64,000 bases of DNA from a virus, in IMG/VR virus record IMGVR_UViG_2786546706_000001, positions 4,285 to 68,284 of that record. One strand, written 5' to 3'. Made by a program: the position numbers and the translations under genes. Below, piece by piece: positions 19,114 to 63,579 of this stretch. Under the pieces are notes generated by a model. The model did not search any database, was not told where the DNA came from, and was given only the letters and a program-made list of their open reading frames with translations. Positions within the stretch are counted from its first letter, which is position 1. Every line of letters begins with the position of its first letter.

Positions 19114-20272
19114 TCTGCATTAAAGTGTGGATGATGCCGACCTGTCGCAGCCACTCGTCCACCACCATGCCGAAATCATCGTAATCATATCCTGACCGGT
19201 TGGATGCGTCAAGGATAATCGTCCGCTCTGACCGCCCGATTTTCACCAGAAACTTCGCCCGGATGATCCGACCCATGCTCGACAGCTTGAAATGATGCCG
19301 TTCCATGTCCCGGAACAGGTCTCCGTCATCCGCCTCCAGGATTGCTGACATTCCGTCGCTCCCGCTGAGGAACGCCTTGATCGACAGCAGGGAGATGCTC
19401 TTCACCTCCGCCGCCCCGTGATAGACGAGGATGTTCCGACCGAGTTCCCTGATCTTGTCCAGATCGTTGATGCGCGGAGCGGAAAAGGCATCGTAATCAT
19501 TGAAGAGGCTCTTGCCGAGCTGCCTGCAGTAGGCATCCTCCATCCACTTGGGACTGGTGGGGATGCCCAACCGCAATTCCCCGGTATCTCTATTGATGCT
19601 CAAAGTGTTGTAACTTTCCGGCTGAAAACCGATGGTCTTAGATTTCCTGCCGTTCATGACGATGCCCTGCCGACGGTAGGAGTCGCCATGCCGGACAAGC
19701 AGCACGAGTTCGCGGCTGTCGTTCTCCGTCAGGGTCACACGGGCCGTGTTTCCGTAGTTCTTCGACTGGAAAATCAGATTCATTCCCTCTTCGAAGTCGC
19801 GGATCTGCGCCGGAGTGATGACCAGATTGCGGATGTCCCGCCGCGTCGCCCGCATCGCAAAGGACTTCTTTTTCAGTGCGGCATAGTCCGTCTCAAGAAC
19901 GCTGAGTTCTTCGGGGTCATGGAGATACACCAGCAGAGCCATATCCGCCGTGGACATGGTGTCCGTCAGTTCACCGGCATAACTGCTTCTCGAAATGAAA
20001 GTCCGCAGGACGTCGTTGAAGCATTCCATGCTGGTGGCTCCGACAAGCGCGAAGCCGTTAAAAAGTTCCTCGTATTCGCCGACGAACATCTGATTCGAAA
20101 GGATTTCCGCAAGCCTGTCATAATCGAAGGTCTCCTCGGTCGCGCCTTCGATCTGGAACTGCATCCGGTCGAAATAGCCCTTGTAGCGTCCCACCATTTC
20201 CAGTAGACGCTGAAACGAGAATTTTCGTAGGACCTCCGGGTTCTTGAATTTTCGTAAATTACTCCCCGCCAT
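19052..20272 (-). CDS. Hypothetical protein of the repressor operon
   Basis: 406-aa ORF overlapping lexA end, GGAGG RBS. Confidence 0.75.
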   Translation of the reverse strand: MAGSNLRKFKNPEVLRKFSFQRLLEMVGRYKGYFDRMQFQIEGATEETFDYDRLAEILSNQMFVGEYEELFNGFALVGATSMECFNDVLRTFISRSSYAGELTDTMSTADMALLVYLHDPEELSVLETDYAALKKKSFAMRATRRDIRNLVITPAQIRDFEEGMNLIFQSKNYGNTARVTLTENDSRELVLLVRHGDSYRRQGIVMNGRKSKTIGFQPESYNTLSINRDTGELRLGIPTSPKWMEDAYCRQLGKSLFNDYDAFSAPRINDLDKIRELGRNILVYHGAAEVKSISLLSIKAFLSGSDGMSAILEADDGDLFRDMERHHFKLSSMGRIIRAKFLVKIGRSERTIILDASNRSGYDYDDFGMVVDEWLRQVGIIHTLMQNDEAIHVELLADECKIAAAV

Positions 20273-49742: not shown

Positions 49743-50063
49743 ATGCAGACCAGAAAACAGAAACTCGCCCTCGTCATCTCCATGCTCACCGCCTTCGCAC
49801 TCGGCATGGCAACCCTGTCCGGATGCGCGCTCTTCACGGAGGAGAAAATCGCCGCAACCGCCAGCGCCGTGCTGGAGAACGCCTACGTCGCGGGAGGGGC
49901 CAGCATGGTCGAACAGAAAATCGATCAGATGGTCGCCGACGGCAAGATCACCGCGGAACAGGCAACCCTGCTCAAGGCGGCCGCGCAGAAGTCCTATGAG
50001 GATCTGCAGCGGACGCTCCGGGACAAGGGCCTCGCGGATGTCGAAGTCACCGTAACGAAGTAA
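49743..50063 (+). CDS. Lipoprotein
   Basis: MQTRKQKLALVISMLTAFALGMATLSG-C lipobox. Confidence 0.75.
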   Translation: MQTRKQKLALVISMLTAFALGMATLSGCALFTEEKIAATASAVLENAYVAGGASMVEQKIDQMVADGKITAEQATLLKAAAQKSYEDLQRTLRDKGLADVEVTVTK

Positions 50064-50069
50064 CCGCCC

Positions 50070-50116
50070 AGCCCGACAGTCGCGCACAAACGCCCGCTGT
50101 CGGGCTTTTATTATTT
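50070..50116 (+). terminator. Putative late-operon terminator
   Basis: AGCCCGACAG...CTGTCGGGCT followed by TTTATTATTT. Confidence 0.55.
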
Positions 50117-50490
50117 AGCACGATCAGGCCGGTTCAGCCGCCCCCCGCCTAAGCGAACAGCGGGCCGTTTCCGGCCGACTGTGGGCGTTTTTATGCTGCC
50201 CATATCGAGTGCGGAGCCCCATTATTTTTTCTGCATATTTCGCAGATTTTTTCCGGAATTCCGCTTGCTATTACAGCGTTCCATGCTGCCCGAAAAAAGA
50301 TCGAAAATTCTTTGATTCCGGACTTGACTTCCGGCATATCGCGCCATTTGGAAAAGTCAAGTCATAAAAGTCATAAATAGTTGAGAATAAACGCTTTTAT
50401 TATCGGAATATCTTTCATAATTCGCTGGATATAAACAGGTTTCATGGTAATGTATGTCACTGTCAAGGGGGGCGGTGCGGAGCCGCCCCG
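50105..50490 (+). repeat. Intergenic repeat unit A (forward) ending in promoter CTGGAT-N17-TAATGT (50425-50453) and hairpin
   Basis: Homologous to units B, C; 50105-50287 is an imperfect inverted copy of 57197-57378. Confidence 0.8.
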
Positions 50491-50526
50491 GACGCGGAAA
50501 AACAAACGCCAACAACGGAGGCAAAC

Positions 50527-50784
50527 ATGAAAAAAAACGCCAGCAAGATTCCGGCAGAGTTCTGGACCACAGCCACCGGCCGCACCCTCTGCACCGCCAT
50601 GCACACAAACGCCTGGGACACCCTCGACTGCCTGAACGCGCAGGTCGATGCGATGACCGCAGCCAGCGCCGAAACCGCCGATGCCTCGGTCAAGGCCGAG
50701 ATCGAGAAGGCCAAAGCCAAGGTGGTCGCCGCCCGCGAAGCCTGCCGCAAGGCGATGGCGATCCTGAGCGACAGCACGTTTTAA
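50527..50784 (+). CDS. Hypothetical helical protein
   Basis: GGAGG RBS after promoter and hairpin. Confidence 0.7.
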   Translation: MKKNASKIPAEFWTTATGRTLCTAMHTNAWDTLDCLNAQVDAMTAASAETADASVKAEIEKAKAKVVAAREACRKAMAILSDSTF

Positions 50785-50832
50785 CCCAAAACCGGGGCGG
50801 CGCGAGCCGCCCCCCAAACAACGGAGGTCAAT

Positions 50833-51276
50833 ATGGACTACAACAACATCTACTGGATGGGCAACGGCAAGTATCAGAAAGAGTACGATGAACTGTGGGA
50901 ACGGCTGGTCCCCTCGCAAGGCAACGCGGTCACCAAGGCCGGAGAGGTTCTCCGGGCGGTCTCCCGGATCTACTGCCGGTGGTATAACGATTGCGATCGC
51001 ATCCAGCCGGTCCTGAGCGAATCGGTGGCGGTGAGTGCGATAAAGGCATTCAAATACCTCTACCAGTTCCTCGACCTGGGTTCCGGATTCAGCACGAGGA
51101 AGCTGATGGAAGACATCGTCTTCGCGGACACCGAGGAAGAGTACGAACTGGCGTTGGAACGGGCCGTCGATGCCATCATCGAGTGGGCGATCAAACAGCC
51201 GGACACACCAAACTCGGACGACTTCCTCGATGAAAAGTTCGACGGGGCCTTCGAATTCGACATCATCAGAGACTAA
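50833..51276 (+). CDS. Hypothetical acidic protein
   Basis: YW.GNGKYQ..YDEL...LVP..G....GE.LRA..RIY...YND; GGAGG RBS. Confidence 0.75.
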   Translation: MDYNNIYWMGNGKYQKEYDELWERLVPSQGNAVTKAGEVLRAVSRIYCRWYNDCDRIQPVLSESVAVSAIKAFKYLYQFLDLGSGFSTRKLMEDIVFADTEEEYELALERAVDAIIEWAIKQPDTPNSDDFLDEKFDGAFEFDIIRD

Positions 51277-51321
51277 GACGAAGACTGAAAAAAACCGAGG
51301 GGCGGCAACGCCCCGATTTAT

Positions 51322-51843
51322 GCATAAACGGCCCGCCTCACGTGCGGGCTTTGCTTGCCCACATACGGCTCTGTCGCGGCGGTCAGGTCGGAACCACCTC
51401 CAGGCCGATGCTGGCCTCATGGCATAATCGCACCACGGGCCAAGTCCGGCCAAATGTGGGCGTATTTCATATCGGGCAGCCGAGTGCGAAGCCCCATAAT
51501 ATTTTTTGCAGATTTTCCTCTATTTTTCCGAAATTTGACTTGACTTCGCTTTTTCCCATGCTGCGGAAAATAAATCGAAAATAGTCCGATTCCGGACTTG
51601 ACTTTTTCCCGACTCGCGGAATTTCCATGCGCCGCAAATCCGGAATTTCAGAGTGTCGCAAAAAACGAGATTTTCCGTTGACCGGAGGGGCATATCGCGC
51701 TATTCCGGAAAGTCAAGTCAAAAAATCCACAAATAGTTGAATATAAACGCTTTGTTATCGAAAAATCTTTCGTAATTTACTGGATATAAGCACGTTTCAT
51801 GGTAATGTATGCACTGTCAAGGGGGCGGTGCGGAGCCGCCCCG
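51322..51843 (+). repeat. Intergenic repeat unit B (forward) with promoter CTGGAT-N17-TAATGT (51780-51808)
   Basis: GCATAAACGGCCCGCCTCAC, CAGGCCGATGCTGG, CGGGCCAAGTCCGGCCAAA shared with unit C; 3' ~130 bp similar to unit A. Confidence 0.85.
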
Positions 51844-51874
51844 AAAACGAGCGAAGCCAACAACGGAGGCGAGA

Positions 51875-52042
51875 ATGGAAAAGGCGATCATCAGAGACCG
51901 CGAGACCGGCGAAGAGCTGACCCTCACAGCCCTTCGGGAAGAATACGAAACCCTGAAAAAAGCCGGGGAAACCGAAGCCGGAAGTTTTGAGGATTACCTC
52001 GAAAACATCACGGACGGCAACGGAACCTGCGATTGGATTTAA
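51875..52042 (+). CDS. Small acidic hypothetical protein
   Basis: 55 aa, GGAGG RBS. Confidence 0.7.
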   Translation: MEKAIIRDRETGEELTLTALREEYETLKKAGETEAGSFEDYLENITDGNGTCDWI

Positions 52043-52081
52043 CGAAACAACGGGGGCGGCAACGCCCCCAAGGAGGACACG

Positions 52082-52378
52082 ATGGAAAAAAGAATTTGCG
52101 AAGCCTGCCACACGGCGACCGAGGACACGTTCCTGACGGTCGGGGAACGGGAAAACGTCTGCTTGGAATGCGCCACCAAGATGGCGAACGAAGCCAAGGC
52201 GGAGAACCGCGAACTTGAAATCACCGACGAGAACGGCGACGCCTGGTTCCTCTGCACCTGGTGCGAGGAGCTTTTTCCGGAAAGCGAACTCCGGAAGGAG
52301 GCCGACCTCGGGCACCTTTGCGACCGGTGCATCGCGGCGATTCACTCACGGGGCGAACGCCTGAGCCTGGAATACTGA
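52082..52378 (+). CDS. Double Zn-finger protein
   Basis: CEAC...CLEC and CTWC...CDRC; AGGAGG RBS. Confidence 0.75.
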   Translation: MEKRICEACHTATEDTFLTVGERENVCLECATKMANEAKAENRELEITDENGDAWFLCTWCEELFPESELRKEADLGHLCDRCIAAIHSRGERLSLEY

Positions 52379-52433
52379 AAACCACCGCGGGGCCCGGTTC
52401 GCCGGGCTCCGGCAAACGAAAGGAACAGAAAAA

Positions 52434-52649
52434 ATGCAAGACCCGTTTTTCACCAAAACCCGCTGCGACCGTTGCGGAGCCCCGCTGACGGTCAGAATCA
52501 TGAGCATGTACAATGAGGACGTCTTGTGCATGACCTGCAAGGAAAAGGAGCGGCAGCGCCCCGACTACCGCGAGGCGGTCGAGGCGGACAACGCCGCCAT
52601 CCGGCGAGGCGACCGGAACTTCAAGGGCATCGGGCTGAAAAAGAAATGA
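52434..52649 (+). CDS. Small Zn-ribbon protein of the amidoligase/GGCT cassette
   Basis: FF....CDRCG...RIMSMYNEDVLCMTCKEKE...GDRNFKGIG. Confidence 0.75.
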   Translation: MQDPFFTKTRCDRCGAPLTVRIMSMYNEDVLCMTCKEKERQRPDYREAVEADNAAIRRGDRNFKGIGLKKK

Positions 52650-52666
52650 ACGGAAAGGAGACCACC

Positions 52667-52885
52667 ATGCCGAAAACCGACATCAAAGTCCGCATCATCG
52701 GAGCAGACGGAAACGTGTTCAACCTCCTCGGCATATGCCGGAGAGCCCTCGGCCGGGCCGGGAAGATCGAACTGTGGGACGAGTTCTACAAGGAGGCGAC
52801 CTCCGGCGATTACAACCACGCCCTCGCCACCATCGCCGACTGGTTCGTGGTCTGCTCGGTGGATGAATCCGAGGACGAGGACTGA
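52667..52885 (+). CDS. Conserved small phage protein
   Basis: IGADGNVFNLLG..RRAL...ATSGDYNHAL. Confidence 0.7.
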   Translation: MPKTDIKVRIIGADGNVFNLLGICRRALGRAGKIELWDEFYKEATSGDYNHALATIADWFVVCSVDESEDED

Positions 52886-52931
52886 AGCACAGACCGGCCC
52901 CCGGAAGGGGGCCTTCACCAAGGAGGCGAAA

Positions 52932-53240
52932 ATGTACCTTTTCAAGCGAATCGGGAAAGAGATGCCGGGGACCGTGCCGGAACTGGAAGTCGTGGAATTT
53001 CCGACCGCCGACACGCCGGACAGCATTCTGTTCCAAGGGAACTGGAAAACCGAAAACGGGGAGTTTTTTCTCGAATTTGAGGGGCTGAAGGAATCGGAGA
53101 AAATTCTGTGGCTCCGGATCATCGATTGGAACGAAGGCGGCGAGGTCATCGCCGAACTCACCGACCTGACGGAATTCGCAAATCGGTATCCGAACTGCAT
53201 GGAGGAGCTGATTTCCTTCTGCCGGGAGACCCGAATTTAG
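52932..53240 (+). CDS. Hypothetical acidic protein
   Basis: AGGAGG RBS after hairpin. Confidence 0.65.
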   Translation: MYLFKRIGKEMPGTVPELEVVEFPTADTPDSILFQGNWKTENGEFFLEFEGLKESEKILWLRIIDWNEGGEVIAELTDLTEFANRYPNCMEELISFCRETRI

Positions 53241-53913
53241 CATAAACGGCCCGCCTCACAAGCGGGCTTATTTCGCGCACACTCGCCCCTGTCGCGGCGA
53301 ACAGGGCGAGCCCACCTGCAGGCCGATGCTGGTCTTATGCTATAATCGCGCCGCGGGCCAAGTCCGGCCAAACGTGGGCATAATTTTATTCGGGGATCGG
53401 CTGCCGAGGCCCCTGAAAAAATCTGCATATTTTTCAGATTTTCTTTGAATTCCGACTTGACTTCGCTTTTCTCCATGCTGCGGAAAAAAGATCGGAAATT
53501 CTTTAAAATCCGACTTGACTTCGCTTTTCTCCACGCTCCGGAAAAAAGATCGAAAATTCTTTGAATGCCGACTTGCATAGGGCTTTTCCCATGCTGCAGA
53601 AAAAATAGCGATTATTTCTATAAAATTGACTTGACTTCGCTTTTCTCCCATGCTGCCGGAGAGGGGCGATTTTTCTTTTTTTCCGACTTGCATTCTGCCG
53701 ATTCGCCGCCGCGCCGGACGGCAGAGAAAATGCCGATTTTTCCGCATATTCCGGCCCTGGAGCGCCTCATTTTCAAATAGCAAGTCGGAATATCGCAAAT
53801 ACTTGAAAATAAAGTGGATTTATTATCGGAAATTCCGCTATAAGTTACTGGCTATCAACGGATTGTATGGTAATGTATGCACTGTCAACGGGGGCGGTAC
53901 GGACGCCGCCCCG
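53240..53913 (+). repeat. Intergenic repeat unit C (forward) including four to five 58-bp tandem repeats and promoter CTGGCT-N17-TAATGT (53848-53876)
   Basis: CCGACTTGACTTCGCTTTTCTCCATGCTGCGGAAAAAAGATC... at 53452, 53510, 53568, 53626, partial 53683. Confidence 0.85.
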
Positions 53914-53949
53914 GACAAACCGGTCAACAGCCAAACGATGGAGGCGAAC

Positions 53950-54846
53950 ATGACCAACACGATTGAGACGGCGAAGGGCTTGACCTTCGGGACGGAACTT
54001 GAGTACACCAACATCAGCCGCGAGCGCGCGGCGCGGGCGATCCACACGGTGGTCGGCGGAACGGTCCGCTACACCGGCGGGAGCTACGACGAGTGGACGG
54101 TGGTCGCGCCGGACGGTCGGCATTGGAAGGCCATCAGCGACGGCAGCCTGACCGACCGCGCCACCAGCGCCGAGGTGGTCACCCCGATTCTGAAATGGGA
54201 CGACCTCGAAACCCTGCAGGCGGTGGTTCGCGCCCTGCGGCACGCCGGGGCCAAGACGCCCGATTGCACCTCCCAGCACGTTCACATCGGGATCGCCGAT
54301 TTCAACGCCCGCCAAATCGCCAACATCGCGCGGATTTTCTACAAGCAGGAGGAGCTGATCCTCAAGGCGGCCGGAACCCTCGAACGCCGCCTTCAGCACT
54401 ACACCCGCCGCACCGACCGCGCCTTCATCGAGCGCCTTGAAAGGGCGAAACCGACCACGCGCGAGGCCCTCAACGAGGCCTGGTTCGGTTACCGGAACCC
54501 GACCCCCTCCCACTACGACGGGGCCCGCTACCGCGACATCAACCTGAACAACGTGTGGCGGATGGGCACGGTCGAATTCCGGCTTTTCAACGGCACGACC
54601 CACGCAGGCGAGGTCAAGGCGCACATTCAGCTTTGCCTCGCGATTGCGGCGAAAGCCAAGACCGCGGCCTGCGCCTCCACCAAAAACCAGCGCCCCTACA
54701 ACCCCGCAAGCGCCAAGTACGACCTCCGGGTTTTCCTCCTCCGCCTCGGCCTCATCGGGCGGGAATTCAAAAACACCCGCATGCACCTGATGAAGCGGAT
54801 GCCGGGAAGTTCGGCATGGAAGAACGGCAGACCGGAAGGCCGGTAA
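53950..54846 (+). CDS. Putative amidoligase (COOH-NH2 ligase type 2)
   Basis: TFGTELE, W....DGSL, AEVVTPIL, HVHIG, RY..INL, TVEFRLFNGT.HAG. Confidence 0.88.
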   Translation: MTNTIETAKGLTFGTELEYTNISRERAARAIHTVVGGTVRYTGGSYDEWTVVAPDGRHWKAISDGSLTDRATSAEVVTPILKWDDLETLQAVVRALRHAGAKTPDCTSQHVHIGIADFNARQIANIARIFYKQEELILKAAGTLERRLQHYTRRTDRAFIERLERAKPTTREALNEAWFGYRNPTPSHYDGARYRDINLNNVWRMGTVEFRLFNGTTHAGEVKAHIQLCLAIAAKAKTAACASTKNQRPYNPASAKYDLRVFLLRLGLIGREFKNTRMHLMKRMPGSSAWKNGRPEGR

Positions 54847-54884
54847 AACGGAACGGGGGGCCGGGAACCCCGGCCCTCCTTTAA

Positions 54885-55245
54885 CAGCATGGCTTGCGTC
54901 AATAGCAAGCGGTTCTTTGAAAAAAAGTTGGAAATAAAGTCGAAAAAAAGACGCGAGCATGGCTTGACTCACCATGCAAGTCCTTTTTCGCAGAAAGTTT
55001 GAAAATATATTTGCGATTTTTTCCAGAGCATGACTTGACTGCTTATGCAAGTCGCCATCGAGGTCATTTTCAAAAAAATCGCAAATATTTTCAGACCCCT
55101 CGGCACTCGATGCCGTGATAAAATTATGCCCACACGGGCAGAGTTAGGGGGCAACGTGCGATCTTATGGTCAGACCAGCATCGGCCTGTAGGTAGTCAAA
55201 CGCTGTTCGCCGCGACAGAGGCCCGTGTGGGCGAAATAAAGCCCA
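54885..55245 (-). repeat. Intergenic repeat unit D (inverted copy of unit C/B)
   Basis: 55118-55133, 55172-55188, 55203-55218 are exact reverse complements of 53374-53389, 53319-53335, 53289-53304. Confidence 0.88.
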
Positions 55246-55264
55246 ACGTGAAAGGAGCAATAAA

Positions 55265-55603
55265 GTGAAAATCCGCATTTACGAAACCGACTTCGAAGGC
55301 CACCCCGTGGAATGCACCGGTGAGTTCTTCTCCGGACCTTCCGCGCTCGCCATCGTGGAGGCGATGAAGATGAGCCCGTTCACCGCCAGCCTCGATCCGC
55401 TTGCCTTCATGCGCCGGGTGCTTGACGGCATCGGCCAGGCGGACTTCGAACTGACCGGGCCTCCGGAAAAGGCCGCCATCGTCTTCCTGCAAAGACTCAC
55501 GGCGCTGAACTTCGCCGGATACGAACTGGAGAAAGACGAGGTGATTTTCGCCCCGGTTTCGGGACATATTCGGCACATATCGAAAAAGCAAGTCGGAAAA
55601 TAA
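55265..55603 (+). CDS. Hypothetical protein
   Basis: GTG start with AAAGGAG RBS. Confidence 0.65.
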   Translation: MKIRIYETDFEGHPVECTGEFFSGPSALAIVEAMKMSPFTASLDPLAFMRRVLDGIGQADFELTGPPEKAAIVFLQRLTALNFAGYELEKDEVIFAPVSGHIRHISKKQVGK

Positions 55604-55645
55604 AGATTTCTCGATAATATATCTTGATTATAAACGACTTGTGGA

Positions 55646-55711
55646 CTGGATATATCCGCAGTTCAGCGGCAATGTATGTCGCTGTCAAGGGCGAGGTCCG
55701 GAGCCTCGCCG
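55646..55711 (+). promoter_or_regulatory. Repeated promoter + 5' hairpin
   Basis: CTGGATATA...GGCAATGTATGTCGCTGTCAA then GGCGAGG...CCTCGCC. Confidence 0.7.
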
Positions 55712-55757
55712 GAAAGTTCGGAAAAACAACGGGCGGAAGCCCAGAAAGGAATGAGCC

Positions 55758-56192
55758 ATGAGCACTCGCGCAGCAATCGCCATGAGACTCCCCGACAACA
55801 CCATTCACGCCATCTACTGCCACAACGACGGCTACCCCGGCTGGACCGGAGCCATCCTCGGCGGGTTCTACAAAACCGAGGAACGGGTCAAGGCGCTCCT
55901 TGCCCTCGGCGCGCTCAGCCAGATCTGGCCGAAGCTGGAGCCGGACCCCGGCGTTCCGCACACGTTCATCAATCCGCAAAAGGACGTGACCATCGCCTAC
56001 CATCGGGACCGCGGCGAGCCGCTGAGAACCGGCTCGGTCTACGCCACCCTTGAGGAATTCGAGAAGGACGCGCCGGAATCCTTCTGGGCCGACTACCTCT
56101 ACCTTTTCGAGAACGGGACGTGGAAATTCCGCCAGAGCTACGGCGAGAGCGAATGGACCGAGCTCAACGTGAAGGTCGGAGAAGAGAACTGA
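55758..56192 (+). CDS. Conserved phage protein (MSTR...IYCHNDGY family), paralog of 8464-8883
   Basis: MSTRAAIA...AIYCHNDGY...LLALGALS...IAYHRDRGE...WADYLYLF. Confidence 0.8.
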   Translation: MSTRAAIAMRLPDNTIHAIYCHNDGYPGWTGAILGGFYKTEERVKALLALGALSQIWPKLEPDPGVPHTFINPQKDVTIAYHRDRGEPLRTGSVYATLEEFEKDAPESFWADYLYLFENGTWKFRQSYGESEWTELNVKVGEEN

Positions 56193-56239
56193 AAACGGGA
56201 AACAGGGGCGGCGCGAACGCCGCCCCGGAAAGGAACGCC

Positions 56240-56662
56240 ATGAGAGCGATTTTCATCAACGCGGTCGGCCGCACGGTCGAGGAAGTTCAGATCGAAAACA
56301 AACTGGAAGCCTTCTACGAAAAGATCGGCTGCGAGATGATCGAGGTTCTGCGGATCGGCGGAAACCACCTCGCCATCGTCGACGAGGAGGGGAAACTCCG
56401 GAATTGGGAAGCGGGATTCAGGTTTCCGAAATCGGAGGGCATCGCCGGGAACGCGCTGATCGTCTGCGGAAAGAGAAACGGCGACTTCACCGACGCCAAG
56501 GCTCCGGTCGAGTTGTTCCAGCTCTGCACCACCTTCCTCGATCTGAAAAAGAATCCACTGCCGCCACCGGCATTCGGAGTCGCCTTCATCTCCGACATGA
56601 GTCCGGAAGGTATCGAAAAGGCACGGGCCGAGGCACTGCGGGATTTGGAACAGCATCGCTGA
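56240..56662 (+). CDS. DUF3846 domain protein
   Basis: IENKLEAFYEKIGCEMIE...IVDEEGKL...IAGNALIV. Confidence 0.75.
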   Translation: MRAIFINAVGRTVEEVQIENKLEAFYEKIGCEMIEVLRIGGNHLAIVDEEGKLRNWEAGFRFPKSEGIAGNALIVCGKRNGDFTDAKAPVELFQLCTTFLDLKKNPLPPPAFGVAFISDMSPEGIEKARAEALRDLEQHR

Positions 56663-56714
56663 ACACGAAACAACGCCGCCCCGCCGAGGGGCGGCTCATA
56701 GAAAGGATTGGAAA

Positions 56715-57197
56715 ATGGAAATTCTGGAATCGCAAAACAAGGACTACGGTTTTTACGGAACTGCGGCGCTTCACGGTCGCGGCAAGGCCGGAGCAAAATG
56801 GCAGGCCGCTTTCCTGTGGGTGGCGGCGGCAATGCCGTCATGGTCGGCGGAGAACATCCGCGATTTCCTCGACGGTCGCCCCGGTCGGCATCTTGCCGAT
56901 GAACTCCACTGCCGCGGCGACATGGGGAAAATCAGTCCGGACTCCTGGCTCCGGAGCATGTACGAATTCGCCGTGGAGGTCGGCATCGCCGATAAAACGC
57001 CGGGGCTGGACCTCCGGCTGAAAGCCGACGCCGAATTCCGGAAGGCCGTGGCGAGCGCCAGAGCCGCCGAGGACGTCTACTGGAAAATACTGAACGGCCT
57101 CCCATCGGAGCAGAAGGACACTCCCTACACCGCCGCACTGCGTGAGCATGTCTCGGACCGCATTGCCAGGATACGGCTCCTCCTGCACGACCTGTGA
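56715..57197 (+). CDS. Conserved hypothetical MGE protein
   Basis: ILESQNKDYGFYGT...IRDFLDGRPGRHLADEL. Confidence 0.7.
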   Translation: MEILESQNKDYGFYGTAALHGRGKAGAKWQAAFLWVAAAMPSWSAENIRDFLDGRPGRHLADELHCRGDMGKISPDSWLRSMYEFAVEVGIADKTPGLDLRLKADAEFRKAVASARAAEDVYWKILNGLPSEQKDTPYTAALREHVSDRIARIRLLLHDL

Positions 57198-57378
57198 GCA
57201 TGGATTCCGCACTTATGCAAGTCGTAAGTGCGGAAATATCTCGAAAATATGGAGAAATTATTATGGCCCTCCGCACGAGGTCAGCGCATAAAATAACGCC
57301 CACTGCGGCCCGGAAACGCCCCAGCGTCCGCTTATGCGGGGGCGGGTCAAATCGGCCTGATCGTGGTAATAAAAACCT
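57197..57378 (-). repeat. Intergenic repeat unit E (inverted copy of unit A)
   Basis: CGGCCTGATCGTG (57353-57365) is reverse complement of 50119-50131; similarity continues through GTGGGCGTT, GTGCGGAG and TTGC..N..CCATGC. Confidence 0.8.
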
Positions 57379-57520
57379 CGCGCCACAGGGGCCTGTCCGG
57401 GCCGGAAAAGGGCATTCGATATTCTTCGATATTTTCCTGATATTCAAGTTGCTATATCGGAGAATCCACGCTTATATATACGCCGGGTCAGACATAAACG
57501 CAAAAGCAGAAAGGAGAGCC

Positions 57521-57949
57521 ATGAAAAGCCCGATTCTATACTTCGCCTACGGCTCCAACATGAACCCGTTCCGGATGGCACAGCGCTGTCCGGGCGCTTC
57601 CGCGCTCGGCGTTGCCATTCTGCGGAACTACCGGCTCGCCGAGCGGCTTTACGCCGACATCGACTTCCAGGAAGGAGCCGAGGTCCACGGAGTGCTGTTC
57701 ATGATTTCAGAACAGAACCTGCGGTCGCTGGACGCCCGCGAGGGCTACCCGAAGGTTTACCGGAGGATGTGGCTTCCCGTCGAATTCAACGGCGAGTCCT
57801 ACCTCGCGGTCACCTACGAGATGACCGCCGCGACCAAAGCCGCCAGGAGCGGCAAACGCTATCCCGAAGAATACCGGAAAATCTGCTCGGAAGGGGCAAG
57901 ATTCTATCGTGTAAAAAACAATTTCACAACCAGGAGGAAAAGAGCATGA
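57521..57949 (+). CDS. Gamma-glutamylcyclotransferase (AIG2-like)
   Basis: LYFAYGSNMN...RCP...V.GVL...LD.REGYP..Y. Confidence 0.88.
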   Translation: MKSPILYFAYGSNMNPFRMAQRCPGASALGVAILRNYRLAERLYADIDFQEGAEVHGVLFMISEQNLRSLDAREGYPKVYRRMWLPVEFNGESYLAVTYEMTAATKAARSGKRYPEEYRKICSEGARFYRVKNNFTTRRKRA

Positions 57950-58311
57950 ACACAGTCCAGATCATCGCCTACGGAACGCTGATGACCGGAGAATGCAACC
58001 ACCGCTACTGCCGGAATGCCGTCAGCATTCAGCCCTGCACGATCAAGGGAACGATCTACGACACCGGCTGGCATTTCCCGGCGTTCCGGCCGGAGGGCGA
58101 CAACACGGTCCACGCGGAGCTGATCGAAATCCCCATCGCCGACTGGCCCTCAATGGACCGGCTGGAGGGCTATCCCCGGTTCTACGACCGGATGCTGGTC
58201 CCGGCGACGCTGGCGGACGGCAGCACGGTCGAGGCGTGGGTCTACGTGATGAACACCATCCCGCCGCAGGCGCGGGTCATCGCCAGCGGCGACTGGAAAA
58301 ACAGAGAGTGA
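57946..58311 (+). CDS. Gamma-glutamylcyclotransferase (AIG2/YtfP-like)
   Basis: AYGTLM.G..NH...FPA...DRLEGYPRFYDR...AWVY...IASGDW. Confidence 0.88.
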   Translation: MNTVQIIAYGTLMTGECNHRYCRNAVSIQPCTIKGTIYDTGWHFPAFRPEGDNTVHAELIEIPIADWPSMDRLEGYPRFYDRMLVPATLADGSTVEAWVYVMNTIPPQARVIASGDWKNRE

Positions 58312-58318
58312 GGGCATT

Positions 58319-58528
58319 ATGGTGAATACGGTTTTGATCGAACAGTCGGCGAAAAACATCAAACTCGCAGAGACAATCGTGCTGGCGGTGCTGTTCGCCA
58401 GCATCGCGGCCGGGCTGGGCGGGATGTATCTCTCGCTAACGCTGGGGATAGTGATGTTCATCCTCGCCGGGATCGCGCTCGTCGGCTTCATGGCCGTCCG
58501 GATCTGGCGCTGGTGGATGCATGGGTGA
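58319..58528 (+). CDS. Small two-TM membrane protein
   Basis: Two hydrophobic helices. Confidence 0.55.
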   Translation: MVNTVLIEQSAKNIKLAETIVLAVLFASIAAGLGGMYLSLTLGIVMFILAGIALVGFMAVRIWRWWMHG

Positions 58529-58707
58529 GCATCATGTGTGAACATTGCATCGACTGCTTCTTCCGGGATGAGGACGGCGACCGGGAACAGTGCATTTTCG
58601 ATCTCGAAAATCCGGTCGAGATCAACTATTCCGATCCGGCCTGCGAGCACTTCGAACTGAGCGAGACGGCGGCCGCAGAACGGCGCAAGGCTCCCGGCGA
58701 ACTGTAA
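58513..58707 (+). CDS. Small Cys-rich hypothetical protein
   Basis: C..C.DC...C...ACEHF. Confidence 0.5.
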   Translation: MDAWVSIMCEHCIDCFFRDEDGDREQCIFDLENPVEINYSDPACEHFELSETAAAERRKAPGEL

Positions 58708-58735
58708 GCGAACACTTTATTTGGAGGAGACGCAA

Positions 58736-59104
58736 ATGAAAGAGAAAACAATCTGGCATCCCGCCTCGGAATTTCCTGAGAGCGGCGCGTATGTTCTGGT
58801 CGTGTACAACGGCCGCCTTCGGGAGCAGACCGTACATCAGAAAATCATGGCGGACTTCTTCGAGACCAGCCACGGCGATCACGCAATGGCGGTCGGATAT
58901 TTCCATCCGACTTGGGGCGCGGCGCTCGACAGGCGGACCCATATACCCGGCGTGAAATATCCGAAACGGACACCGCAGACAAATGCGGCAATTGTAGATC
59001 AAATCGGCGGCCCGATTGATTTCTGGCAGAACGTGAAATGCTGGGTCTACGGCAAGGACATCTTCGCACTGATTCCGAAACCGGAAGGGAAAAAATCAAA
59101 ATGA
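58736..59104 (+). CDS. Hypothetical (DUF551-like N-terminus)
   Basis: IWHPASEFPE...VLV; GGAGG RBS. Confidence 0.6.
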   Translation: MKEKTIWHPASEFPESGAYVLVVYNGRLREQTVHQKIMADFFETSHGDHAMAVGYFHPTWGAALDRRTHIPGVKYPKRTPQTNAAIVDQIGGPIDFWQNVKCWVYGKDIFALIPKPEGKKSK

Positions 59105-59161
59105 CGGCTTCCCTTTCAGGCGTTTCGGTGCTATATTATATTGCAACACAGCGGAGTTTCC

Positions 59162-60808
59162 ATGCCAACGTTTCATAATCAATTTCAGCCCCGTGCCACC
59201 CGCACGACTGTCTATCAGCTTCGTGCCGATGTCCAGTGTCCGGACGACATGGAAAATTCCTTTTCCCGGATCATCGGGCTGATTCTTCCATTCGTCGCAA
59301 AATCTCTCTATACGAAACTGCCGCCCGAAGCGGCGGAACATCGCAGCTTTGAAATCCAGGACGAGAACCGCCAGTGCGAATGCGTCGCCGTCCCGGAGCG
59401 GATGCTGTGGGCGATCCGATTCAAATTCACCAGCAAGGACGGGACGTTGTGGTATTACGATGTTTCTCTTGTCCGGGAAGATGACCGGCTGATTTTCGGC
59501 ATGAAGATCGATACGGCTTTCGGGGCCGACGTGAAGGCTTTACAGGCAAACCTGCCGCTGGTCGAGTCTTTGCTCGGGTGCGGCCTCCTCGCGCAAGGAC
59601 GGCCCGTTACGGCCAATCTGTGGCTGGTCAACACGCCGGAGGACGTTCCGGAGCTGGTTGCTCTGCTGGAAGCCCCTTACCGGTCCCTGCCGGTGATCGT
59701 CATTTCCGCCGTAAACCGGAATGCGTGGCGTTTCACGCCGACCGCTCCCGGATATCTGGTCAACGCCGCTTACCTGGCGGACAAAGTTAAGGGTTACGCC
59801 ATCGTCGCGCAGATCAGTTTTCAGGCTGCATTTGCCCTGACCGAGGCGGTCGGCAAGAGCTGGTCTGTTTACGATGGAGCCTGCCGGACCTATTTCCCGA
59901 AGATCGATTTCGACAACGGTTCCCCGGCGCACCATCCCGGTAATTTCAAAGACAAGATCTGGTTCTGGAATTACGAAGGGTTGCGCGGAGAACGGGGCTA
60001 CACGGCGTTTCTGATCGACACCGCCCATCGGGTCGCGTCCACCAGCCGGACCGACTGGAGCGGCCTTTACTTCGTGCCGGACGCCCGAATTCTCGCCGCC
60101 GAACTGGAATGGGCCCACGCAATGCACCTCGCCAACGCCCCGGAACGGGAACTGGCGATGCAGAACCACATCGCCGCGCTTCAGCGGAAGCTGCAGACGG
60201 CGGAAGATGAGAACGCCGACTGGCTGGGCGAACTGGAAAAGGCGACCGAGGAAGCCGAATACTACAAGCAGGAGAACGCGGCACTCCGGGTGCAGCTGGA
60301 TGCTCTCCGCGCACACCTGATCCGGCAGAGCGGCGAGTCCCCGGACAAGGAAATCCCAATTCCGAACAACTACAAGGTCATGGGCGAATGGGTGAAGGAA
60401 CACCTCGCCGGGCGGCTGGTTCTGCTCCCGCGCGCGGAACGGGCCGCGTCAAAGGCTGAATATGCCGAGGTCGGGATGGTTTACCGGGCCTTGCTGATCC
60501 TCGCCAACGAGTATCGGGACTCCCGGATGGGCACGGGAACTGACAAGGCGTTCCGGGATGCGCTCGCCCAATTCAGCATGAACTTCTCAGGTTCCATCGA
60601 CAAGAGCCGCGCCGGACAGGAGGGCGAGGCTTACTACGTCAACTATCCCATCGGGACCGATCAACGGGCGTTCCTGCAGTTCCACGTCGTCAGGGGAAAC
60701 TCCCGCGAGGACCGCTACTGCATGCGGATCTACTTCTTCTGGGACGAGGACACCAACCAGGTCGTGGTCGGCTGGCTCCCGTCCCACCTCAGCAACCGGA
60801 TCAGCTGA
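59162..60808 (+). CDS. Coiled-coil protein with C-terminal RelE-like motif; candidate defence protein
   Basis: 548 aa; central coiled coil; FH...G...RYCMRIYFFWD....VVVGWLPSHL. Confidence 0.65.
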   Translation: MPTFHNQFQPRATRTTVYQLRADVQCPDDMENSFSRIIGLILPFVAKSLYTKLPPEAAEHRSFEIQDENRQCECVAVPERMLWAIRFKFTSKDGTLWYYDVSLVREDDRLIFGMKIDTAFGADVKALQANLPLVESLLGCGLLAQGRPVTANLWLVNTPEDVPELVALLEAPYRSLPVIVISAVNRNAWRFTPTAPGYLVNAAYLADKVKGYAIVAQISFQAAFALTEAVGKSWSVYDGACRTYFPKIDFDNGSPAHHPGNFKDKIWFWNYEGLRGERGYTAFLIDTAHRVASTSRTDWSGLYFVPDARILAAELEWAHAMHLANAPERELAMQNHIAALQRKLQTAEDENADWLGELEKATEEAEYYKQENAALRVQLDALRAHLIRQSGESPDKEIPIPNNYKVMGEWVKEHLAGRLVLLPRAERAASKAEYAEVGMVYRALLILANEYRDSRMGTGTDKAFRDALAQFSMNFSGSIDKSRAGQEGEAYYVNYPIGTDQRAFLQFHVVRGNSREDRYCMRIYFFWDEDTNQVVVGWLPSHLSNRIS

Positions 60809-60956: not shown

Positions 60957-61151
60957 ATGAACGACGAACGATGGCTTTCTGTTGAAGAGATTTCAGAATA
61001 CCTCGGAGTCGGCCGGGAAACCATTTATAACTGGATTGAAAAAAGAGCAATGCCCGCACATAAGGTGGGCAGATGTTGGAAATTCAAACGCCAGGAAGTA
61101 GATATCTGGGTGAAATCCGGTCAGGCCGCTGAAGGGAGCGGTGCAGTATGA
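60957..61151 (+). CDS. Excisionase-family HTH_17 DNA-binding protein
   Basis: RWLSVEEISEYLGV..ETIYNWI...PAHKVGR.WKFK...VD.W. Confidence 0.88.
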   Translation: MNDERWLSVEEISEYLGVGRETIYNWIEKRAMPAHKVGRCWKFKRQEVDIWVKSGQAAEGSGAV

Positions 61152-62365
61152 TGAAGAAATCAATGGACGATGAGATTCTGAGAGGGAAAATTATTGCCTT
61201 GCTGAAGGATTATGGGTCATCGTCATCGGACAGTGATTTAAACACTGCGGTGATGAACATGCTGAAAATTCTTCCACCGCCAGTTGTTAGGCTTAATGCC
61301 GAAAAATCGCTCCCCGTGCATTCGGCCTTGCGTAAAGACCAAATTCCCTATCCCCCTCCGAAAAAACATGAATTTACCTTCATAGACCTCTTTGCCGGGA
61401 TCGGCGGATTCCGCCTTGCCTTTCAAAAAGCAGGCGGGTTGAGTGTTTTCAGTTCGGAATGGGATGAGGCTGCCCAGAAGACCTACGAGGCAAATTACGG
61501 AGAGATTCCGGTCGGCGATATTCGGGCTGTTGATAAAGATGCCATTCCCGACCACGATGTCCTCTGTGCCGGTTTTCCTTGTCAGCCGTTTTCTCTTGCC
61601 GGAGTCTCTAAAAAGAACTCAATGGGGCGGGCAACCGGTTTTGAGGATCAGACCCAGGGAACGCTGTTTTTTGAAATCAAGGAAATCTTGGCCAAAAAGC
61701 GCCCTGCCGCCTTCATGCTGGAAAATGTCAAAAACCTATTCCGTCATGATCAAGGTCGGACATTTGAAATAATCAGACACACGCTGGAAGATGTTCTGGG
61801 ATACATCGTCAACTGGAAAATTGTGGACGGCAGCAAATGGGTTCCCCAGCATCGGGAAAGATTATTCATTGTCGGTTACAATCCGGATTTGATTGACATT
61901 AGGAAAGATGAAATCATCATTCCAACAGAACCTCACAAAGAAGAGCATTTTACGAGGAAGCAACTGCGTGACATTATCCTTCCTGCCGTAGACGGCTACA
62001 CGCTTGGTCCGGGGACTTGGGATACTCTTGAACGTCACAAAGCACACCATGAGGCAGAAGGCAACGGCTTCGGATACGGTCTGCATACAGTTCCCATTAA
62101 GGAAAACGAAATCACCCGGACTATTTCCGCCCGTTATCACAAAGACGGAGCGGAAATTCTCATAGAGCAGCCGGGTAATCGTCCGCGACGCCTGACCGTT
62201 GAAGAGGCCATGCAGTTGCAGGGCTATGATCCGGAGCATTTCCTTTTTCCTGTCTCCAAAACTCAGGCATACAAGCAAATCGGGAATAGCGTTGTATGGC
62301 CTGCGATTCATTCATGTGCATTGGAAATCGCCAAGGTTCTGAAAAACCGGAGAAAGAAGAAATGA
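61148..62365 (+). CDS. dcm: DNA (cytosine-5) methyltransferase, Dcm/M.EcoRII-like
   Basis: FIDLFAGIGG, GFPCQPFS, ENV, PQHRER, TISARYHKDGAEILI, YKQIGNSV. Confidence 0.92.
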   Translation: MMKKSMDDEILRGKIIALLKDYGSSSSDSDLNTAVMNMLKILPPPVVRLNAEKSLPVHSALRKDQIPYPPPKKHEFTFIDLFAGIGGFRLAFQKAGGLSVFSSEWDEAAQKTYEANYGEIPVGDIRAVDKDAIPDHDVLCAGFPCQPFSLAGVSKKNSMGRATGFEDQTQGTLFFEIKEILAKKRPAAFMLENVKNLFRHDQGRTFEIIRHTLEDVLGYIVNWKIVDGSKWVPQHRERLFIVGYNPDLIDIRKDEIIIPTEPHKEEHFTRKQLRDIILPAVDGYTLGPGTWDTLERHKAHHEAEGNGFGYGLHTVPIKENEITRTISARYHKDGAEILIEQPGNRPRRLTVEEAMQLQGYDPEHFLFPVSKTQAYKQIGNSVVWPAIHSCALEIAKVLKNRRKKK

Positions 62366-63579
62366 ATCCTGAAAAGGACTATAAAAACATATCCTTGACA
62401 CAGTTTCTGGAGATTTTGGACCAGAAACGCTTCTTCTGGCTCATAAAACGCCTTTCTGGGAATGATACAGGAATTACCGGCGGTCATCAGTCGGGGATTT
62501 ATGTTCCCCGACAGTTCATGGAGGCGGTTGTCCCCTCTGTGGTCACCACGGAGGAGTATAATCCTACACGAGAAATTTCCTGCTACATCCCAAGTCAGGA
62601 CTGTCTGAAAACAGGAATTCAGGCGAAGTATTACAACAATAAGTATTTCCCTGAGAAGGAACTGAAAAAGAAATACGATGAATTCCGACTGACCCGCTGG
62701 GTTGGGACTCCTTTGCAGGACGTGGAAAACACGGGAAGTATTTGCATCCTTGCCGGAGCATGCAGAAATGGAGAAACAGAACTGCTCGGATGGGTAAGTA
62801 ATTCTGCGGAAGAAGAAGACCTCATCGAGTATTGGCTCGGAAAAGATGTCGAGCCGGGACAGATGTATCTATCCTCCGCGCAAACCGAAAGGAAAGAACT
62901 TCCGATTTTGAAGCAGCTTCCAGTCGCATGGCTGAAGGCGTTTCCGTCAGGTCGTGACATTTTTAACTTCATCGAGGAAAGATTCCCTCAAAGTTCATGG
63001 ACGCGCTCAATTGACGAGCTCCTGCTGAAAAGACGAGATGTCGAATTTGACATTTTTTCCGAGGTGGAAAAACATGATGTCATTCCCAACATCAAAGATG
63101 GATTTTCTTCTGTCGATGAATTCATAAAATATGCGAACAGCGTGGCGAACCGCAGAAAATCACGCGCGGGAACATCTCTTGAACTTCATCTGGAAAGCAT
63201 TTTTCGATATGAGCAGTTGAAATTTGAGGCTCAGGTCGTCACAGAACAGAATAAAAAACCAGATTTCATATTCCCTTCCGGCAAAGATTACCATAATCCA
63301 GCATTCCCCAGCACGAAACTGCACATGCTGGCCTCAAAGACCTGCTGCAAGGACCGCTGGCGCCAAGTCATCTCTGAAGCAGACCGAATTGAGAAAAAAC
63401 ATCTCTTTACTTTGCAGCAGGGAGTATCCTCCAATCAGCTGGCGGAAATGTATCAGCATGGCATTGTTCTGGTTGTCCCGCAGCCAATCATTACGACATT
63501 TCCGGATGAATACCGGACAAAAATAATGAATCTGACCGGCTTTGTCGATTTTATAAAAACCAGTCAAAATGCGGGTTGA
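62362..63579 (+). CDS. EcoRII-like type IIE restriction endonuclease
   Basis: KRLSGNDTG.TGGHQ.G.Y (effector domain); NRRKSRAG.SLE.HL, KPDF.FP, KT.CKDRWRQV. Confidence 0.92.
   Translation: MNPEKDYKNISLTQFLEILDQKRFFWLIKRLSGNDTGITGGHQSGIYVPRQFMEAVVPSVVTTEEYNPTREISCYIPSQDCLKTGIQAKYYNNKYFPEKELKKKYDEFRLTRWVGTPLQDVENTGSICILAGACRNGETELLGWVSNSAEEEDLIEYWLGKDVEPGQMYLSSAQTERKELPILKQLPVAWLKAFPSGRDIFNFIEERFPQSSWTRSIDELLLKRRDVEFDIFSEVEKHDVIPNIKDGFSSVDEFIKYANSVANRRKSRAGTSLELHLESIFRYEQLKFEAQVVTEQNKKPDFIFPSGKDYHNPAFPSTKLHMLASKTCCKDRWRQVISEADRIEKKHLFTLQQGVSSNQLAEMYQHGIVLVVPQPIITTFPDEYRTKIMNLTGFVDFIKTSQNAG

Follow-up and report, generated by a model that had tools for sequence, protein, structure and literature searches.

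Why would a tailed double-stranded DNA phage carry a family of long inverted repeats that appear nested one inside the other around small genes of a single orientation? The question is raised by a 64-kb stretch of viral DNA (hereafter, the window; it covers bases 4285-68284 of an IMG/VR provirus record that is 68,284 bases long), in which a region with five related units (A to E) lies directly after the tail genes, among small plus-strand genes that mostly belong to no recognised family. An initial annotation had proposed that the units pair with one another over long distances as the arms of a nested structure, or else that they are recombination or inversion sites or structured RNAs. With a probability that we place at about 0.5, comparison of the sequences suggests that the five units are oriented paralogous regulatory cassettes and that the 115-nucleotide (nt) core of each is a candidate structured RNA, which would act as a leader in the reversed copies and as a short stand-alone RNA in the forward copies. 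The novelty of the locus probably lies in this candidate phage RNA element and not in a new kind of DNA structure.

Five oriented units and the question of arm pairing

The five units, with the orientations +,+,+,-,-, were recovered where the initial annotation had placed them by repeat search, alignment, nhmmer, and cmsearch. A five-copy profile detected the copies of the window by nhmmer at E values of 5e-36 to 4e-56, and a covariance model (R1), built from 22 non-redundant relatives, found exactly five cores in the window at E ≤ 1 and nothing else (E values of 4e-36 to 4e-5). Two subtypes were distinguished: T1 (units A and E) is short, and T2 (units B, C, and D) has an extra CTGTCGCGGCG-containing part. 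The T1 core of unit A lies at 50074-50188 on the minus strand (cmsearch E of 4.1e-5; nhmmer match at 50080-50253, E of 5e-36) and that of unit E at 57296-57410 on the plus strand (cmsearch E of 2.7e-7), upstream of two gamma-glutamyl cyclotransferase-like (GGACT) genes. The T2 cores are those of unit B (51349-51463, minus strand, cmsearch E of 9.3e-33), unit C (53267-53381, minus strand, 6.4e-31), and unit D (55126-55240, plus strand, 3.8e-36), the last of which ends, on its 3′ side, ∼25 nt short of the GTG that starts gene 55265. Each unit is a composite of one or more terminators, the 115-nt core, an AT-rich box, and GACTTG...CATGCT modules; a rightward promoter segment is found in units A to C only. 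The positions first given for the units hold, but their extents needed adjustment, as unit E continues to ∼57431 and unit D runs into gene 55265 at its ribosome site and start codon. The units are non-coding, as described: the cores (G+C content of 0.58-0.66) lack 3-base periodicity, and every frame is interrupted in at least one of the 22 copies. A small open reading frame (ORF) within the core, suggested by the scarcity of indels and an apparent L-Q-A-D-A-G frame, was considered and rejected on these same grounds; in addition, the 1-nt gap of two copies shifts the frame across an invariant block.

The repeat search returned two inverted pairs that link units C and D (53268-53349 with 55158-55239, 82 nt, 79%; 53374-53434 with 55073-55133, 61 nt, 77%) and one that links A and E (50115-50192 with 57292-57369, 78 nt, 77%), together with direct-repeat families that connect A, B, and C. 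These results bear out the description of E as a reversed A and of D as a reversed C with three exact blocks (16, 17, and 16 nt in the five-way alignment). Likewise, C and D do bracket the amidoligase gene alone (53950-54846), and the cassette genes are all co-oriented on the plus strand. The repeat shared by C and D is real, but C is no closer to D (64% core identity) than it is to B (71%), and the core identities for A-E and A-B are 69% and 67%, respectively. That A-E and C-D are the best-pairing combinations is due in part to the subtype that the two members of each pair have in common.

The units obey a rule of orientation relative to the genes. Forward copies lie to the left of the amidoligase gene and reversed copies to its right in related contigs; in all contigs, every forward copy immediately follows a stop codon and the terminator of that gene, and every reversed copy immediately precedes a gene. 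In 13/13 distinct contigs (G001 and G003 counted once), the reversed T2 copy extends over both the ribosome site and the start codon of the 55265 homologue. In contigs L060/L063, where a reversed T2 copy precedes an amidoligase-like gene, the nesting is broken and the relation to the gene is kept; in L059 and L065, such a copy precedes other genes, and in G005:C12, where the GGACT genes are inverted with respect to the neighbouring operon, an E-type copy still points at them. We take the nested appearance to be a result of this orientation rule and not of pairing between arms. The last-mentioned locus (L114; G005:C12:20401-22780), from a metagenome-assembled genome (MAG) titled Victivallaceae, has the GGACT pair and the E-type unit inverted together and divergent from the 51875/52082/52434 operon, and its core is a T1/T2 hybrid in which GCCGCGACA is kept.

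Long-range nested pairing, for which single-stranded or extruded DNA of the Frpo/ssi or T5-stop type had been invoked, is unsupported, with identity, orthology, compensation, and the contig G001 all against it. Each copy is most closely related to the one at the corresponding position in another phage (A with g2a, 72%; D with g2c, 78%; D with g1D, 95%), and same-position copies across genomes are 55-94% identical for C and 61-91% for D. Within the four genomes that have a copy both before and after the amidoligase gene, C-D identity (68.7, 67.0, 61.4, and 54.4%) is no higher than that between genomes (51.8-67.8%). Among columns changed in both arms, the fully compensatory ones amounted to 0/1, 5/26, 3/21, 6/24, 4/21, and 2/12. 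G001 (which equals G003 over their common part) is 93% identical to the window over 54037-60801 and keeps units D and E, yet a profile search of G001/G003 revealed no forward copy (A-C); a simple AT-rich promoter stands upstream of the G001 amidoligase gene. To the left of that gene (L040, 7460-9700), G001 keeps a GCAAGTC box ∼18 nt before a TTGATA hexamer; the promoters there are AT-rich and the small genes are different ones with a lower G+C content, as though a lower-GC source had supplied this portion of the cassette.

Cofolding with RNA parameters gave gains over self-folding of -81 kcal/mol for C+D, -59 for A+E, -55 for B+D, -28 for B+E, -15 for C+E, and -11 for A+D, which makes the nested partners the most complementary cross-orientation pairs in this window. 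The + + (+) - - layout, with T1 outside and T2 inside, also recurs in G002, Ga0079305, and the L061 contig. The initial annotation had held that pairing would be refuted by similarity no higher within the proposed pairs than between any two units, by a lack of compensatory changes, and by random orientation in related phages. We found pair-specific similarity to be only marginally higher and compensation to be lacking, whereas orientation is conserved; even so, pairing is not the cause of the conserved orientation. Nor do the units behave as inversion sites, given that the amidoligase gene is co-oriented with its neighbours in 12/12 contigs, that the contigs of four RNA runs contain no strand-changing joint, and that no recombinase family was recognised among 55 ORFs (23 + 32) by Pfam or among 38 ORFs by PHROG. 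The term recombination sites is apt for homologous exchange between direct copies, with indels of whole cassettes, but not for inversion; similarly, the term structured RNAs fits local folds inside each unit but not long-range arms.

The 115-nt core as a candidate structured RNA

We refer to the strand that points away from the amidoligase gene (minus for A-C, plus for D and E) as the R-strand. When the 27 full-length T2 copies were collapsed at 96% identity, the 22 remaining cores aligned over 115 columns with a single 1-nt gap, found in two sequences. The blocks GCGAT, CCAGCATCGGCCTGnAGGT, and GCCGCGACA are invariant, and the 15-nt spacer between the latter two is variable at every position. 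RNAalifold predicted 18 pairs on the R-strand, 7 of them with double changes, compared to 9 pairs, 0 of them compensatory, on the other strand. The R-strand structure consists of a closing helix (columns 2-4/106-108 and 9-14/96-101), a hairpin (30-32/41-43), the pairs 23-24/50-51, and a pairing between the two invariant blocks (57-60/84-87). For the 18 pairs (396 cells), 91.2% of the cells were paired on the R-strand versus 77.8% on the other strand, with slid partners giving 33-48%; the corresponding values were 84% versus 65% for helix 9-14/96-101 and 89% versus 62% for helix 30-32/41-43. Cells changed on both sides numbered 48 on the R-strand as opposed to 21.6 in shuffles, and 0/500 shuffles matched the observed pairing or covariation score. 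There were 58 G.U cells versus 5 A.C cells, with equal GxT and AxC base products, and it is mainly because of this asymmetry that we read the element as an RNA and assign it to the R-strand. Two generic features of a structured RNA, compensatory pairs beyond controls and a strand asymmetry, are therefore present. Rfam 15 yielded 0 matches at the gathering score in the whole window and, at E ≤ 5 over 49900-57600, two weak chance-level matches inside genes and none in the units, and a tRNA scan with ARAGORN returned nothing relevant.

The signals that surround the core suggest where such an RNA might start. Unit D has an AT-rich box (TGnTAAAAT; 55116-55125, plus strand) that is conserved in alignments and lies 3-4 nt before GCCCAC, the first conserved block. 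Equivalent boxes are located at ∼50187-50196, 51462-51472, and 53380-53390 on the minus strand and at 57286-57295 on the plus strand; the box is present in all copies and reads ATAAAAT, TATGAAAT, or CATAAAAA in those other than D. We consider this TAAAAT-like box a putative -10 element. Upstream of the box lie the GACTTG(A/C)-N14/15-CATGCT modules, with 16/23 of the GACTTGM sites of the window falling within 50321-57223. Unit C contains a 58-bp tandem array (53441-53656, plus strand; 3.7 copies by Tandem Repeats Finder) of GACTTG(A/C)-N14-CATGCT modules, and single or double modules occur at 50321-50363, 51537-51601, 51713-51719, 53685-53691, 53780-53786, 54955-55053, and 57196-57223. The array is polymorphic (3 versus 4 copies): in contigs from runs X15 and X19, precisely one unit is missing (53450>53509).

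At the far end of the core, the two orientations differ. By eye, the homologous position is occupied by a GC-rich hairpin in 12/12 forward-mode copies and by a ribosome site and start codon in 10/10 reverse-mode copies. Two hairpins stand behind the gene at 50833-51276 (51299-51348), the first with A7 before it and T7 after it on the minus strand, as in a bidirectional terminator; the terminator scan lists the R-strand hairpin that follows core B at 51314-51299 (minus strand, tail TCGGTTTTTT). After core C, behind the gene at 52932-53240, the scan lists an 8-pair hairpin at 53249-53267 (53267-53249 on the minus strand), and the terminator of the gene at 49743-50063 (50092-50105, plus strand) lies at the left edge of unit A. 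The same scan found no R-strand hairpin between cores D or E and the genes that follow. The rightward promoter segment of unit A (50385-50494, plus strand; direct-repeat families D5, D9, and D11) includes a 5′-untranslated region (5′-UTR) hairpin and the box TGGTAATGTATG at 50445, and paralogous segments are present at 51740-51847, 53808-53915, and 55620-55715 on the plus strand. This box occurs 4 times, always on the plus strand and 75-90 nt before a start codon. We also observed that nearly every cassette gene has a G+C-rich hairpin 5-15 nt before its ribosome site (e.g., 50792-50815, 52050-52070, and 52385-52410, and further 52895-52915, 56205-56228, and 56675-56695), as do the 5′-UTRs after the four rightward promoter boxes; several of these hairpins are listed as terminator-like on the minus strand only, and they may be mRNA-stabilising or processing stem-loops.

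We propose that the units are ancient paralogues, each a copy of the same self-contained regulatory cassette, within the accessory (moron-like) region of this siphovirus-type prophage and that the 115-nt core most likely specifies a structured RNA on the R-strand, with transcription starting from the putative -10 element. In the reversed copies, the RNA would continue toward the next gene, such that D would be the 5′ leader of gene 55265 and E would precede the promoter and leader of the GGACT genes. In the forward copies, the RNA would run back into the terminator hairpins of the preceding gene, yielding a short, free-standing transcript that diverges from the rightward promoter of the next operon; the hairpins at 51299-51348 and 53249-53267 would end the RNAs of units B and C, respectively. 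The family with its copy number, the conserved arrangement, the asymmetry of pairing between the strands, and the indels of whole cassettes are shown by the sequences; that the core is transcribed, where the transcript starts and ends, and whether it serves as a leader switch in cis and/or a sibling RNA in trans are what we infer. A bolder extension, which we regard as speculative and rather doubtful, is that the core represents a new class of phage riboregulator in 3-5 sibling copies, i.e., one fold used as a leader switch for 55265 and as free-standing RNAs directed away from the amidoligase gene to either side, that responds to one common signal (a ligand or protein acting on the invariant 18-nt plus 9-nt core) and sets the whole accessory, possibly anti-defence, cassette, including conditional antisense read-through into upstream operons.

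Several observations weigh against the interpretation of the core as an RNA. A strict sigma-70 scan (TTGACA/TATAAT) returned 3 promoter-like sites versus 3.0 expected, none of them at the cores, and no -35 element is evident. The AT-rich box is, on the opposite strand, the T-tract after a weak hairpin, and the scan lists terminator-like features at 51444+, 53362+, and 55140-. Unit E has a sigma-70-like promoter (TTGCTA-17-TTATAT) between its core and the GGACT genes that is conserved in G005:C12; because of this separate promoter, the E core is not simply a leader. The sequences represent about seven independent lineages, the 18-pair structure was derived from the same alignment on which it was scored, and the best helices of an unbiased column-pair scan had 7 extra pair types on the R-strand versus 5 on the other strand. 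The closing helix is absent or register-shifted in 5/22 copies, columns 9-11 can pair instead with 30-32, and folding of single sequences is unremarkable (z of -2.7 to +0.6 on either strand) with inconsistent structures. An antiterminator/terminator alternative lacks column-wise covariation. As for expression, RNA libraries make up 6/24 of the listed runs, and the contigs of the four examined cover units B, C, and D and the genes alike, with DNA carry-over possible; these contigs carry neither strand nor transcript-end information. Finally, a fixed length and a fully variable 15-nt spacer are at least as typical of a bipartite protein-binding DNA site. An antiterminator/terminator switch following the core, in a three-way arrangement with the closing helix, was seen in single sequences and was rejected, since its pairing levels (80.6% and 75.0%) fall within those of shuffles.

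A serious rival, though one that we judge unlikely, is that the core acts as duplex DNA, i.e., as an asymmetric bipartite binding site (18-mer, 15-bp spacer, 9-mer) for a phage or host protein that, along with the GACTTG modules, controls promoters or forms a roadblock or insulator. Such a site would be consistent with one 1-nt gap in 22 copies, with a spacer that varies everywhere without keeping pairs, and with invariant blocks that are the sole strongly conserved parts; the concentration of 16/23 GACTTGM sites in 11% of the window, the 6-10-6 palindromes that some form in D and E, and the failure of the sigma-70 scan to reveal a canonical promoter for an RNA also agree with it. On the other hand, neither the 58 G.U versus 5 A.C cells nor the 13-point strand difference in pairing would be expected of duplex DNA, and no DNA-binding family was recognised among the 16 cassette genes (49743-58528), the sole helix-turn-helix match being the protein at 60957-61151. 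A binding site and an RNA are mutually compatible. We consider it improbable that the core is, on the strand that reads opposite to the RNA, an extra terminator or insulator whose GTGGGC-ended hairpin and T-rich tract stop read-through (A-C) or antisense transcription from the right (D and E). The scan does list a weak hairpin plus T-tract at 51444-51461+, 53362-53379+, and 55140-55127-, and forward copies do lie directly behind stop codons, but these hairpins have only 5 pairs and 8-nt loops (4-nt at 55140-), canonical terminators already stand between the stop codons and the cores, and that strand pairs worse (77.8% versus 91.2%) and has no compensatory pair by RNAalifold. The invariant blocks and the 13/13 gene-start adjacency of the reversed copies would also be left unexplained.

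Still less probable, in our view, is that the units are decaying relics or miniature mobile elements, i.e., leader-plus-promoter fragments left by past duplications or inversions of 55265-type genes that now function only as recombination homology. The resemblance of B/C-type copies to a D-type leader in which the ribosome-site region is replaced by a terminator hairpin would be consistent with this idea, as would whole-cassette indels that break within repeats; however, the invariant blocks are kept in all copies and both orientations across phages whose proteins are 28-82% identical, the copies are syntenic in diverged genomes and hence not recently mobile, and 3-5 copies are maintained per genome. 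The explanation to which we give the least credence, and which we regard as largely refuted, is the one that the nested appearance first brings to mind, namely that the arms pair over 1.6-7 kb (A-E and C-D) in single-stranded or extruded DNA or in one long transcript, giving nested stems, or that they are sites of inversion or excision. The cofolding gains, largest for the nested partners, and the recurrent layout agree with it, but set against these are the lack of arm co-evolution, the overall arm identity of just 64-69%, the retention of D and E without a forward copy in G001/G003, the broken nesting in L060/L063 and G005:C12, and the results given above concerning inversion. The element is, moreover, a tailed double-stranded DNA prophage and not a conjugative leading region, and cruciform extrusion requires near-perfect arms and a short spacer. 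Oriented regulatory cassettes with an RNA core thus remain our preferred interpretation.

Distribution, cassette turnover, and genomic context

Relatives were sought by scanning sequence collections for two degenerate patterns based on the conserved blocks, and the resulting loci were checked by profile match. The first pattern gave 24 loci in IMG/VR, of which 5 (on three contigs) were real and 19 were chance matches. The second gave 6 loci in IMG/VR (4 real), 37 in metagenome contigs (23 real), and 20 in species-representative genomes (3 real), or 30/63 real loci overall and 33 chance matches. In total, 65 matches representing 45 distinct sequences were obtained, with 3-5 copies per genome. 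Both the unit family and its layout recur in related prophage contigs of ruminant and pig gut, and the public runs that contain most of a 7.7-kb stretch are labelled as bovine, pig, or goat gut metagenomes. All three genome records come from MAGs, their contigs bearing the titles Lentisphaeria bacterium, Victivallaceae bacterium, and Christensenellaceae bacterium; in these MAGs, the covariance model matched only short phage-like contigs and one further contig, G005:C12, with no sign of a host-encoded version of the unit. The phage GenBank collection contained no unit and only an 88-nt match of the amidoligase gene to a Christensenellales phage.

Direct comparison of related phages revealed the gain and loss of cassettes. 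Contig Ga0079305 matches the window over 49805-50534 and then 51690-52382, with 50535-51689 missing and both breakpoints inside the repeated promoter segment; consistent with this placement, L079 531-723 matches both 50340-50534 and 51690-51880 (overlapping matches). Ga0079305 accordingly lacks genes 50527-51276 and unit B, and it also lacks 52932-53240 and 55758-56192, while L082 has an extra cassette between T1 and T2. Among the RNA-run contigs, one (run X16) has a joint, 50471>51865, at homologous points of two 5′-UTR hairpins (weak, with a flank of 29 letters), another joins 50530 to 55812 (also weak, with 22 letters), and deletion of a 58-bp repeat unit was seen as well. With the cassettes present in repeated form, whole gene cassettes are gained or lost among related phages through homologous exchange between direct copies.

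PHROG matches (38 ORFs scanned) identify the genome as siphovirus-type. Genes for a primase/helicase, a Sak4-like annealing protein, and an exonuclease lie at 5-17 kb on the minus strand, followed by a portal gene at 23787, a 2132-residue tape measure (30374-36772), and tail and collagen-like fibre genes up to 46.6 kb. The ORFs of the cassette encode 55-298 residues, most without a known family in Pfam or PHROG. The gene at the centre of the arrangement (53950-54846, plus strand) matches Amidoligase_2 (PF12224, E of 4.2e-57) and phrog_2443. Gene 55265 (55265-55603, plus strand, GTG start) encodes 112 residues with no Pfam or PHROG match; its homologues in relatives are 55-95% identical, and protein and alignment searches of IMG/VR returned three contigs already known and no others. 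Pfam and PHROG scans also identified a DUF3846 gene (56240-56662, plus strand), the two tandem GGACT genes downstream of unit E (57521-58311, plus strand; E of 2.7e-13 and 9.1e-25), and members of phrog_27033, phrog_1933, phrog_1987, and phrog_8020 within the small-gene run. A 71-residue zinc-ribbon-like protein (52434-52649) matches the C-terminal part of phrog_27033 (142-206) and the first GGACT protein (57521-57949) its N-terminal part (1-105); from these two partial matches, it follows that some phages have the 52434 and 57521 genes, 5 kb apart here, fused.

No integrase or repressor was recognised in the window by Pfam or PHROG scans. A Pfam scan of 32 further ORFs, aimed at a regulator, sigma factor, or recombinase, identified only Bro-N, RusA, DUF669, a tail tube protein, HTH_17, Vsr, and a fragment of a nicotinamide mononucleotide transporter. 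The HTH_17 protein (60957-61151) directly precedes an island (61.1-64.0 kb) made up of a Dcm-type cytosine methylase (61148-62365), an EcoRII-family endonuclease (62362-63579), and a Vsr nicking endonuclease (63569-); its G+C content is 47-48%, compared to ∼60% elsewhere, and it probably represents a separate mobile island or the host flank. The transporter fragment, a 78-residue ORF (1821-2057, minus strand) that matches the C-terminal end of the protein with an E of 1.2e-6, slightly above the cut-off, may be the remnant of a host gene where the prophage begins on the left. Between 17000 and 23600, the G+C content is lower (53-57%) and ORFs without a Pfam or PHROG family, including one of 406 residues (19052-20272), occupy both strands.

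Significance and comparison with known systems

If the core is indeed an RNA, it would belong to an undescribed family that is absent from Rfam 15, with newness judged against that database and the motif itself not having been sought in the literature. Contigs of the family also occur in MAGs titled Lentisphaeria and Victivallaceae, and to our knowledge almost nothing is known of gene regulation in such hosts. The same fold used as both leader and stand-alone copy would, if true, provide a compact system for studying how a phage coordinates its accessory cassettes. For genome scanning, the locus offers a caution: oriented paralogous regulatory units alone can yield a striking nested inverted-repeat pattern.

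Several known systems share parts of this arrangement. Invertible segments and shufflons (Gin/Hin/Rci) have inverted repeats around genes and need a recombinase and two orientations. The units likewise bracket one or more genes as inverted repeats in a phage accessory region beside tail-fibre genes, but no recombinase gene was found here by the Pfam and PHROG scans, 12/12 contigs show a single orientation, and the arms are hundreds of bases long and 64-69% identical, unlike short crossover sites. Lambda OOP is a short convergent antisense RNA, and "sibling" small RNAs are paralogous copies with an invariant single-stranded stretch between variable stems. The RNA proposed here would resemble these in being short, in being transcribed against the main operon from a promoter immediately behind a gene, and in having multiple paralogues; it differs in that it is predicted to overlap the upstream mRNA only at the terminator common to both. 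The nutL/nutR sites of lambda and putL/putR sites of HK022 are cis-acting RNA elements downstream of promoters that point away from the centre, which gives them an inverted-repeat appearance. The present units similarly flank a central region as inverted repeats in terminator-rich operons; however, there is no Rfam or sequence relation, each genome has 3-5 copies, those that point leftward have terminators and no leftward genes ahead of them, and antitermination would not fit copies A-C.

Frpo elements, as described in the portions of Samuel and Burstein 2024 (PMC11541004) drawn on here, are local single-stranded DNA hairpins that rebuild a -35/-10 duplex on transferred single strands in conjugative leading regions. 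Frpo/ssi elements and the present units have in common that they are long, non-coding, structured, and upstream of small accessory genes. As to features, they differ in that no stem here contains -35/-10 hexamers, the cores are G+C-rich (0.58-0.66), and the surroundings are those of a tailed prophage (portal, tape measure, tail fibre, primase, and Sak4); the main text of that paper (PMC11541004) has 0 mentions of the amidoligase, DUF3846, and cyclotransferase families.

In virulent T4-type myoviruses, PeSLs (promoter-early stem-loops) are short terminator-plus-promoter cassettes with consensus sigma-70 promoters, and close relatives differ by insertions, deletions, and replacements that arise through exchange between copies, according to the parts of Arbiol et al. 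2010 (PMC2839356) used for this comparison. The units resemble PeSLs as repeated composite modules of terminator and promoter between small accessory ORFs of a plastic region, with terminator hairpins, a predicted promoter, and the box TGGTAATGTATG in four copies, and as sites where indels have their breakpoints in repeated cassettes (Ga0079305 versus the window). They differ in their length of 180-650 bp, their occurrence in both orientations, their conserved 115-nt core with upstream modules, and their location in a temperate siphovirus-type prophage. No cassette site passes the TTGACA/TATAAT scan, as a consensus sigma-70 promoter would, and a conserved RNA core is not described for PeSLs in those parts of the paper. 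The idea of mobile regulatory cassettes, with gain and loss of gene modules at repeats seen by direct comparison, thereby extends from virulent T4-type phages to a temperate siphovirus-type prophage. Taken as analogies, and without assigning the units to either group, the nearest functional counterparts would be PeSLs for the repeated modules and their shuffling and the nut/put sites for the inverted look of the flanking copies.

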